This document shows, one piece after another, positions 52,647 through 54,886 of a DNA stretch of 64,000 nt. Below the pieces are notes generated by a model. The model saw only the letters and a list, made by a program, of their open reading frames with translations. It did not search any database and was not told where the DNA came from. Source of the stretch: Cyclobacteriaceae bacterium (GTDB lineage: Bacteria > Bacteroidota > Bacteroidia > Cytophagales > Cyclobacteriaceae); contig OZ254082.1 of assembly GCA_965267535.1 (NCBI GenBank), positions 4,409,904-4,473,903 of the forward strand. The letters run 5' to 3'. The first letter of the stretch is position 1; each line of letters opens with the position of its first letter. The position numbers and the translations under genes are program-made.

Positions 52647-52727
52647 CCCGAAACAAAAAACTTTCCCCAGATTTGAACTTTATGGCGCTTTTAGCGGTTG
52701 TCAGTTTGCACCCAACTGCTAAAAACC

Positions 52728-53213
52728 ATGAAGAACCTCATTTCAAGCTTATGGCTTATATTGGCCTTGCTGACCGTATCGTGCGGTGTAGTGAGTCTGG
52801 ACGAACTAGCCGCAGGAGATACCATAGCGATCGACCCGGCTCAGTATCCTGAAAACAATCAGGCACTCACTACAGCTCTTACAGACAACACCTCAAAAAG
52901 CTGGTCTACTACCGGCTTCAACTACCATATCGTAAAGAGATTTCAGGCGTGCAGACTAGACGACACCATCACATTGCTAGCCGACAACACCTACCAATAC
53001 GACGGTGGCGACCTCCTGTGCGGAGCTGAAGATGACACGCGTAAAAAATCCGGCACATGGGAAGCCAACTACGAAGGGCGTAAGCTCACCTTCGACAAAG
53101 GAACCTCACACGAAGTGGAGCTTTATATTGAAGAAGCCAGCGAAAACCAAATCATTGTAAGTGCCACCTACATGAATGTAAAAGTAGTAGGCCGATACGA
53201 ATTAGCCCTATGA
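52728..53213 (+). CDS. Lipoprotein, lipocalin-like beta-barrel domain
   Basis: Lipobox TVSC; CRLDD..C pair, GTW motif; ATG 52728. Confidence 0.65.
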   Translation: MKNLISSLWLILALLTVSCGVVSLDELAAGDTIAIDPAQYPENNQALTTALTDNTSKSWSTTGFNYHIVKRFQACRLDDTITLLADNTYQYDGGDLLCGAEDDTRKKSGTWEANYEGRKLTFDKGTSHEVELYIEEASENQIIVSATYMNVKVVGRYELAL

Positions 53214-54082
53214 AAACACTACTCCTTTTATGCACCTTGATGTGCTTAACTATAGCCGGTTATGGTCAGTCAAATGTTCAGGTTTATACTCCTTCGGTTC
53301 TTCTTCAAAAAGGACAGGTTGAAGTACTACAGTTTAACAACTACTACACGCAAACTCATATCCGAAATCAAAACGGCGACAAAGTAACTGTCGGTCAGCG
53401 GCAATCCTTTCTTCGCAATACTATTGGGCTACTATACGGCACTTCTACATCCGGAAAATTCAATATTGGAGTAGAAGCAAACATAAGCAGTGCACGATAT
53501 AGCGCTGCTTCCGATTCATTTTTTAGTCTTTTTGAAAATTCACAGGATGATTTCAAAAAAACAGTATTGTCTGCTATTGGGCCAAAAGTTAAGTTTATTC
53601 CATTCGACGCTCTCAATGGTTTTTCTATACAGTCTACCTTTTTAATTCCTCTCTCTGATCAACTTGAAGCAGGGCAATTTATCGACCACCATCGATACAG
53701 TTGGTTTACACAGTTTTTTTACGACAAGGCTCTTAGTCAAAATTTTCGGTTATTCCTGGAAGCCGACATCCTGTATCGCATAAAAGCCAATAGCGTGCAG
53801 CAAAACTTTTTCCGTACACCTTTGAGCGCTATCCTCAGTTACTTTCCAACCCCTCGCTCTACGGTATACCTCCTCTACCAGCATGCTCCTGCGTTTGGCA
53901 CTCTCAGAGGCGCCAGCAGCGAAGTATTTGGTCAGCTACGATGGTTTTCTCAAGCAGGCATTGGAGCAAAATATCAACTCACCAATAGCCTTGGCCTTGA
54001 GGTATCATATGGTAATTTCTTCTTGTCCAGAAACGATGGAGCCGGTCAGGTAGTCAATCTGGGCTTGCGGATTATCCGGTGA
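53210..54082 (+). CDS. Putative outer-membrane beta-barrel protein
   Basis: Signal peptide; amphipathic strands; C-terminal VVNLGLRII; ATGA overlap with the upstream lipoprotein gene. Confidence 0.65.
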   Translation: MKTLLLLCTLMCLTIAGYGQSNVQVYTPSVLLQKGQVEVLQFNNYYTQTHIRNQNGDKVTVGQRQSFLRNTIGLLYGTSTSGKFNIGVEANISSARYSAASDSFFSLFENSQDDFKKTVLSAIGPKVKFIPFDALNGFSIQSTFLIPLSDQLEAGQFIDHHRYSWFTQFFYDKALSQNFRLFLEADILYRIKANSVQQNFFRTPLSAILSYFPTPRSTVYLLYQHAPAFGTLRGASSEVFGQLRWFSQAGIGAKYQLTNSLGLEVSYGNFFLSRNDGAGQVVNLGLRIIR

Positions 54083-54296
54083 TAACCAACCCGTTTTCTC
54101 TAACTTTTGGTACGTAAGTAAAAGACTCTCAACTACTCGCAGAGCCGTCACGCCCGGGGGCTGCACCCCACTACTGACCTGCCTGAAAATAAATTCGTCG
54201 GATTATTGACCGGACTTGTCGAAATAATTCGACTAACTATATATATAAGCTTACTATTGCCGAGTCAACCAATTCAACCATTTTTTTAACACAGCT

Positions 54297-54515
54297 ATGA
54301 GTACTTATTTACTTTGGTACAATCCAATAAAACAAGAATATCAGGCAGGGGAAAAAGAGCAATACAATGAAGCCGCTTCTGAAAGCGACGAATCAGAAGA
54401 TTTTGTACTGCTGGAAACCTTCAACGACTTAACACAAGCCGGAATAGAAAAATTATTTGATCAGGTAAATGCCCTAAACGGATACAACCTACAAACTGTA
54501 AACTTCTCCGTTTAA
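54297..54515 (+). CDS. Small acidic hypothetical protein (72 aa)
   Basis: Good start context (tttttaacacagctATG), protein-like composition, fills an intergenic gap. Confidence 0.7.
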   Translation: MSTYLLWYNPIKQEYQAGEKEQYNEAASESDESEDFVLLETFNDLTQAGIEKLFDQVNALNGYNLQTVNFSV

Positions 54516-54618
54516 GCATCAACCAGGCCCTATCTACCATCACCTGCCAAAACCTGCACTTTATCGTTTGTTTTTGGCTGCTCAGCGAAAAGTCCATTTT
54601 CACCCTCTCCCTTTGACC

Positions 54619-54626
54619 TAATTTTG
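54619..54626 (+). promoter_or_regulatory. -7 box (TAATTTTG) of the candidate small RNA
   Basis: Exact TAnnTTTG match about 100 nt upstream of an orphan terminator. Confidence 0.6.
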
Positions 54627-54630
54627 GCGT

Positions 54631-54750
54631 ATAGTTATTCAGGCAACCCAACGCCCAATTGTCATTAACCCAAAAACAAGATCTTAAGCTATGGATAGGG
54701 CAGGTTGTATGAATAAAATTTGATTAGCACCCCGTTTGGGGTGCTTTTTT
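54631..54750 (+). ncRNA. Candidate small RNA (or micro-ORF mRNA) upstream of rpsP
   Basis: Bounded by a promoter and a terminator; 5' and 3' segments pair (ttattca/tgaataa, caacc/ggttg, gccc/gggc). Confidence 0.5.
54726..54750 (+). terminator. Intrinsic terminator
   Basis: AGCACCCC-GTTT-GGGGTGCT perfect 8-bp stem followed by a T run. Confidence 0.85.
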
Positions 54751-54826
54751 GTTGTCCGGGTTATTCAAAAATCCGAAAGAAAGATTTATAAATCAGACAC
54801 ATAATAGTATTTGCCAATATTTTACC

Positions 54827-54834
54827 TAAATTTG
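54827..54834 (+). promoter_or_regulatory. -7 box (TAAATTTG) of the rpsP operon
   Basis: Exact TAnnTTTG match 52 nt upstream of the rpsP ATG. Confidence 0.65.
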
Positions 54835-54886
54835 CGGACTTTTAAACCGTGGACGTGATCCACACCCTTTAAAAATTTAAATACTA

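Follow-up and report, generated by a model that had tools for sequence, protein, structure and literature searches.

A candidate small RNA specific to Reichenbachiella and its possible base-pairing with a widespread sRNA candidate

The window, a 64,000-nucleotide stretch of contig OZ254082.1, carries an unannotated unit, named W here, upstream of the rpsP gene. The initial annotation had described a promoter box, a set of three helices around an A/C-rich loop, an ORF of 10 codons and a terminator of 8 bp for W, and all of these features are present in this genome at the positions at which it had placed them. Two adjacent secreted-looking ORFs of 171 and 290 aa lie further upstream (window 52698-54082); the former shows a weak match to the NlpE N-terminal domain that falls below the Pfam cut-off, and the latter belongs to no Pfam family. 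The roughly 0.5 kb between the 290-aa gene and W (54083-54618) holds nothing but an orphan ORF of 72 aa. This ORF has no Pfam match, and a search of 5.8 billion proteins gave it a single homologue, which is 99% identical and comes from the same strain or one nearly identical to it. The features of the locus are as follows, in window coordinates.

54297-54515, + strand: orphan ORF for an acidic 72-aa product, upstream of W (context only)
54619-54626, + strand: -7 promoter box of the Bacteroidota type, TAATTTTG (consensus TAnnTTTG), read from the sequence
54630-54750, + strand: predicted W RNA of ~120 nt, from the presumed start to the end of the T-run, both ends deduced from the box and the terminator
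54635-54656, + strand: 5' arm of a long hairpin in predicted folds of this genome only; it resembles the seed of a second candidate RNA, X (described below), and masks the anti-X core
54657-54697, + strand: A/C-rich loop of ~41 nt (alignments of W copies)
54676-54683, + strand: conserved block CARGRTCT, inside the A/C-rich loop (alignments)
54688-54695, + strand: conserved block GCTATGGA, mostly inside the A/C-rich loop (alignments)
54691-54723, + strand: micro-ORF MDRAGCMNKI, ATG to TGA, 10 codons, judged non-coding from the lack of conservation of frame, length and residues in homologues
54701-54722, + strand: anti-X core CAGGTTGTATGAATAAAATTTG, the complement of the invariant 5' part of X
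54726-54750, + strand: intrinsic terminator (terminator scan), an 8-bp stem AGCACCCC-GTTT-GGGGTGCT at 54726-54745 followed by T6
54810-54836, + strand: promoter of rpsP itself, with TTTG at 54810-54813 and TAAATTTG at 54829-54836, conserved upstream of rpsP in four other Reichenbachiella
54849-54863, + strand: rpsP 5'-UTR hairpin GTGGA-CGTGA-TCCAC at the very start of the 5' UTR, conserved in four other Reichenbachiella

TAnnTTTG is the -7 consensus of Bacteroidota sigma-A promoters. At the other end of W, a T-run follows the terminator stem on the + strand only; the opposite strand lacks one, and the terminator therefore works for the + strand only. In the folds of this genome, both minimum free energy (MFE) and centroid, three helices are formed (54635-41/54710-16, 54643-48/54703-08 and 54653-56/54698-701). 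The fold z-score is -1.7 for 54619-54755 and -3.0 for 54630-54752, which includes the terminator, while the body of W without the terminator gives -2.3, with 11 of 500 shuffles folding equally well. The predicted fold of W is only moderately better than chance. The three-helix architecture proposed initially is reproduced in this genome but is not shared by its relatives, since the consensus structure of seven W copies keeps the terminator only and the other copies fold differently.

The view that W belongs to no known RNA family was borne out by the Rfam searches. Rfam 15 gave no family at the gathering score over the window, the matches at E<=10 over the window were terminator-driven noise only, and no Rfam match was found for the W homologues or the X loci. 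The weak matches to JA04, AaHKsRNA20, ncS54 and Phe_leader scored 17-24 bits, far under the gathering scores of 43-81, with only the generic terminator hairpin and U-run aligned, and membership of W in any of these families was rejected.

The position of W next to translation genes invites an association with the ribosomal-protein operon, which the initial annotation had drawn and which the comparison of genomes corrects as wrong. Upstream of rpsP in four congeners W is absent and the neighbours are different (an htpG-like gene in one, opposite-strand genes in others), and the six other copies of W face a convergent hemB-like gene instead of rpsP. The hemB-facing site of this genome holds an htpG-like gene with a terminator in place of W. 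Furthermore, the two junctions are swapped between species: in this genome the htpG-like gene faces the hemB-like gene (C1:4561000) and W precedes rpsP (window 54750-54830), and in the congener G004 (locus L074) it is W that faces hemB, with the htpG-like gene located before rpsP. Such an arrangement fits the excision and re-insertion of a chromosomal segment (translocation), with breakpoints right after the two terminators, and on this reading the proximity of W to the translation genes would be accidental. Judging from gene order, W has no real tie to the ribosomal-protein operon, and its variable location, before rpsP here and facing hemB elsewhere, is as expected of an autonomous small gene. 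The rpsP promoter and 5'-UTR hairpin are separate from W; they are near-identical in all five Reichenbachiella, and the DNA further upstream is entirely different. This hairpin could be a stabilising 5' stem-loop or a regulatory site of the S16 operon.

Relatives of W were searched for by BLAST, by scanning 185,579 species genomes for exact patterns and by a metagenome scan, and W-like units were found by these means in Reichenbachiella genomes and two metagenome contigs only. With a covariance model built from five copies, W was recovered from each of the five Reichenbachiella species genomes (135, 130, 76, 56.5 and 54.3 bits), and nothing convincing from 146 other genomes of the family. Seven distinct copies, that of this genome included, were aligned. 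A TAnnTTTG-like box with at most one mismatch occupies the equivalent place in 7/7 homologues (TAGTTTTG, TAGCTTTG twice, TAGTTTAG, TACTATTG and TAGTATTG in the others), always 100-130 nt upstream of the T-run of the terminator. Besides this box, the conserved parts of W are the block CARGRTCT, the block GCTATGGA, a core RTGAATRAAATTTG and the terminator, for which RNAalifold gave 11 consensus pairs over the seven homologues, three of them with changes on both sides. The core is the most conserved block of W outside the terminator in the seven-copy alignments, and CARGRTCT and GCTATGGA are conserved about as well; in all, some 70 conserved bases lie 5' of the hairpin. Between species the DNA of the flanking hemB-like gene is no more than about 78% identical, yet W is retained in all five Reichenbachiella genomes, which argues that W is under selection as a unit. 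The proposal of a self-contained, unannotated RNA-type unit is in this way upheld by its relatives, as all seven homologues share a box, a body of ~110-130 nt and a terminator, the last with covarying pairs. From this conservation, W is likely to be a novel self-contained RNA unit and is probably a real small non-coding RNA specific to the genus Reichenbachiella. The suggested role as a ribosome/S1 decoy found no support in any of the results.

The second proposal made for W, a micropeptide, did not survive the alignment. In 7/7 copies the ATG is kept unchanged within GCTATGG, and GCTATGG(A) forms a conserved block; the ATG follows an A/C-rich, unstructured leader, and every copy has an ORF of 6-10 codons that ends just 5' of the hairpin. 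These traits would suit a micro-mRNA or leader in which ribosomes translate the ORF from GCTATGGA onwards and modulate termination when they stop at TGAATAA, 3-14 nt short of the stem, and in which pairing with X blocks translation. Against it, the products (MDRAGCMNKI, MEAGYE, METGCE, MVTGYE, MDTGLYE and MEAQFV, 6-10 aa) are not conserved as peptides, and the few substitutions among the four closest copies are all non-synonymous. The stop codons derive from TGAATAA in the conserved core and therefore arise automatically from it. As frame, length and residues all change between species, a peptide is unlikely. Moreover, read-through in 6/7 copies would enter the convergent hemB-like gene, which leaves no downstream gene to be regulated, and rpsP here has its own conserved promoter. 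We thus hold a translated leader to be quite improbable.

W may also be no separate RNA at all, in which case the stretch would be the 3' UTR and terminator of an upstream gene, either the 72-aa ORF or the 290-aa gene in this genome and a transporter-like gene in congeners. The terminator scan is in keeping with this, as it gave no + strand terminator from the upstream ORFs up to 54726, and the upstream gene of the congener G001 likewise has no terminator before that of W. However, the upstream genes differ between species while the body of W and the TAnnTTTG-like box travel together, and the ~70 conserved bases 5' of the hairpin would be needless for a plain terminator. This origin seems improbable to us, and it would in any case be compatible with a function, since many sRNAs and sponges arise in this manner.

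The core of W led to a second unit, X. The genome searched is a single contig of 4.95 Mb, and the best complement to the core of W anywhere in it belongs to X, which lies outside the window.

genome C1:4159793-4159905, + strand: X unit with its boxes and terminator, the strand being given by these signals only
genome 4159835-4159855, + strand: segment of X that is complementary to the W core, ~305 kb upstream of W

X is much more widespread than W. Its 21-mer CAGGTGTATGAATAAAATTTG occurs exactly in 62 of 401 genomes of the family, representing 23 of 132 genera, usually as a single copy, and a reversed-pattern control gave no matches in the same 401 genomes. The usual position of X is between a gene for a low-molecular-weight phosphotyrosine phosphatase and an outer-membrane-like gene. 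Its layout is highly regular. All of the 35 copies examined have GGTTAC, exactly 16 variable bases, GTATA(T/A)A and then 9-14 variable bases, and downstream of these follow the invariant CACAAATTTTATTCATACACCTGTT, a variable linker, a GC-rich hairpin and a T-run on the same strand (35/35). About 25 invariant bases thus come after the boxes and before the terminator, whose hairpin varies freely in sequence and always pairs. The spacer that separates the second box from the invariant part tolerates indels, but none ever occur between the two boxes, which is promoter-like behaviour. The gene beyond the hairpin is co-directional with X at 4 of 20 loci, and there the hairpin cannot serve to terminate a convergent gene. 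In one genome (G264) four copies of X occur, three of them in tandem; the whole X unit is repeated, and the similarity extends past the hairpin. The 5' region of X is essentially unstructured in the predicted fold. Collectively, X looks like an sRNA gene of ~80 nt and is a candidate trans-acting sRNA, its strand read from the signals.

Two other identities of X were considered and rejected. A 17-codon ORF (MNKICVM...) runs along the motif strand, opposite to X, and a 17-aa protein was dismissed owing to premature stops in 9 of 31 copies and to a conserved part without synonymous variation. The arm ATGTTAAA in X recalls a dif/Xer-type site, and this assignment was abandoned since the sequence varies past the arm and the conserved part lacks dyad symmetry. 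The GGTTAC-N16-GTATA boxes matched none of the promoter classes tried, and the same pattern occurs in this genome at roughly chance frequency, which gave no regulon for a promoter of this type. A duplex scan of the genome yielded no convincing set of mRNA targets of X, and the literature search returned nothing on the X sequence or on relevant Reichenbachiella transcriptomes.

The relation between the two units is one of extended complementarity. Of the 22 bases at W 54701-54722, 21 are complementary to the invariant 5' region of X, with one bulged U. The 13-mer TGAATAAAATTTG is found exactly twice in the 4.95-Mb genome, once in W and once in X, and CAGGT(T)GTA precedes it at both places. The predicted W:X duplex energy in this genome is -29.1 kcal/mol, compared with -10.4 +/- 2.6 for shuffles, and over the 7/7 copies of W it ranges from -22.9 to -31.4 kcal/mol, whereas shuffled W gives about -10 to -12 +/- 2.7. 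When the opening of the structures of both RNAs is charged in cofolding, the ddG is -14 to -26 kcal/mol over all copies. This genome, at -14.3, has the weakest value of the seven, and half of the pairing capacity of its anti-X core is hidden in structure, with a mean unpaired probability of 0.47. In a genome-wide scan for the X seed, W is the second-best non-self site by energy and the best by contiguous Watson-Crick pairing. The variable sites of the 14-nt core are A/G only among the seven copies, and both of them face U in X, so that the pairing is kept as G-U.

The E-value of the W/X match by BLAST within the genome is only about 0.1, and the significance of the match comes from where it falls rather than from the match alone. 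That chance should have joined the most conserved block of W to the invariant core of X, oriented opposite to both terminators, is very unlikely (~1e-4 on a rough estimate). The sequence common to W and X could instead act at the level of DNA, for instance as a promoter element or as a binding site for a protein; the motif contains AAAATTTG, a 7/8 match to the -7 box consensus, and the invariance of X could reflect a DNA-binding constraint. In W, though, only 3 nt separate the motif from the terminator stem, and 6/7 copies place it between convergent genes, with nothing there to control. In X, both the boxes with their fixed spacing and the terminator go with the opposite strand. Such a site has very little probability in our view. 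Two narrower versions were rejected: the motif as a promoter within W would fire straight into the terminator, and the minus strand of W cannot be a paralogue of X, as it carries neither GGTTAC/GTATA boxes nor a T-run.

The blocks CARGRTCT and GCTATGGA are not accounted for by the pairing with X. Two conserved blocks outside the pairing, together with the genus-wide conservation of W as a promoter-to-terminator unit, would agree with W being an ordinary trans-acting sRNA that uses its core or GCTATGGA as a seed for mRNAs, in which case the match to X would be a non-functional by-product, for example of an old inverted duplication. One congener assembly (G002) with W and no detectable X seems to point the same way, but its contig C60 ends exactly at the flank of the X locus (L141:1897-1975), and this instance of W without X is uninformative owing to the contig break. 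Moreover, X is the best complement to the W core in this genome, and both core substitutions are wobble-compatible with X. We consider such an independent sRNA unlikely. X in G002 may be repeated or hard to assemble, and its apparent absence may be false.

W is limited to one genus while X is widespread, which means that X clearly works without W. Anti-X modules were also looked for in 13 genomes of other genera, with chance-level matches only. In one genome of another genus (G309, C1:2093581-2093596, L125), a stretch of 16 nt that is perfectly complementary to the 5' end of X lies between a stop codon and an intrinsic terminator, a layout like that of the W core; its E-value of ~0.35 means that it may be due to chance, and it is not conserved in a congener.

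Our preferred reading, put forward tentatively and with slightly less than even confidence, is that W pairs with X, be it as an anti-sRNA or sponge or as a target. In this scheme W, ~120 nt long, would have a sigma-A-type promoter of its own (-7 box 54619-54626), its transcription would stop at the intrinsic terminator (54726-54750), and it may additionally be released from the 3' end of upstream transcripts. The conserved 3' segment (54701-54722) would then pair with the invariant, unstructured 5' region of X. The resulting duplex of ~21 bp could sequester or destroy X, for example by triggering cleavage, which would make W an anti-sRNA or sponge; alternatively, W could be a dedicated target of X. 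In this genome only, the X-seed-like 5' arm folds back on the anti-X segment in the predictions, and access to it may be gated. The anatomy and conservation of the two units, their complementarity and the predicted energies come directly out of the sequence analysis; from these we infer that W and X are transcribed, that X is encoded on the + strand and that the RNAs pair in vivo with one of the two outcomes above.

What this reading adds to the first observation of W is the discovery of X and the predicted pairing of the two, by which W may bind or soak up X. The W-X pairing prediction is specific and testable. Two candidate genes missing from Rfam are brought forward, the genus-wide 120-nt W and X with its 21-mer identical in 23 genera and its unusual, rigid promoter, in a field (post-transcriptional regulation in Bacteroidota outside the gut Bacteroides) that is almost unexplored. 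To our knowledge, the Bacteroidota are a phylum without Hfq or ProQ, and we know of no sRNA sponge in it outside the gut Bacteroides. A bolder version of the proposal would make W and X the first sRNA/anti-sRNA pair described in Bacteroidota, with X as a family-wide regulator of ~80 nt under the non-housekeeping promoter GGTTAC-N16-GTATA and W as its dedicated 120-nt antagonist in Reichenbachiella, the ~21-bp pairing being long enough to do without an Hfq-like chaperone. We regard this version as doubtful.

Both candidates have analogues in other bacteria. RybB and MicA of enterobacteria are sRNAs that depend on Sigma-E and carry an invariant 5' seed ahead of the terminator. X would resemble them as a short gene (~80 nt) whose 5' end is invariant and single-stranded and leads directly into a linker and an intrinsic terminator, and in having a non-housekeeping-looking promoter with rigid box spacing, whereas no homology connects X with either of them. 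For W, the comparison is with RNAs that act on sRNAs, such as the proteobacterial sponge SroC acting on GcvB (PMC4474525) and, as further cases that have been reported, an RNA antagonist of PinT (PMC12721325) and an RNA sponge of Caulobacter (PMC12559287); in Bacteroides, RbpB has been described as an RNA-binding protein (PMC11697453). W differs from the proteobacterial sponges in that there is no sequence or structural homology, its complementarity of ~21 bp is longer than that of typical seed mimics, its host belongs to the Bacteroidota, and both W and X are candidates read from sequence. Like them, W would be a short RNA with a long stretch complementary to a conserved seed, here that of a candidate trans-acting sRNA, and such sponges often come from a 3' end or an intergenic stretch and are taxonomically younger than the sRNA they bind, as W would be with respect to X. 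By analogy, W may thus share the logic of the sponges, that of a younger RNA mimicking the target of an sRNA seed.
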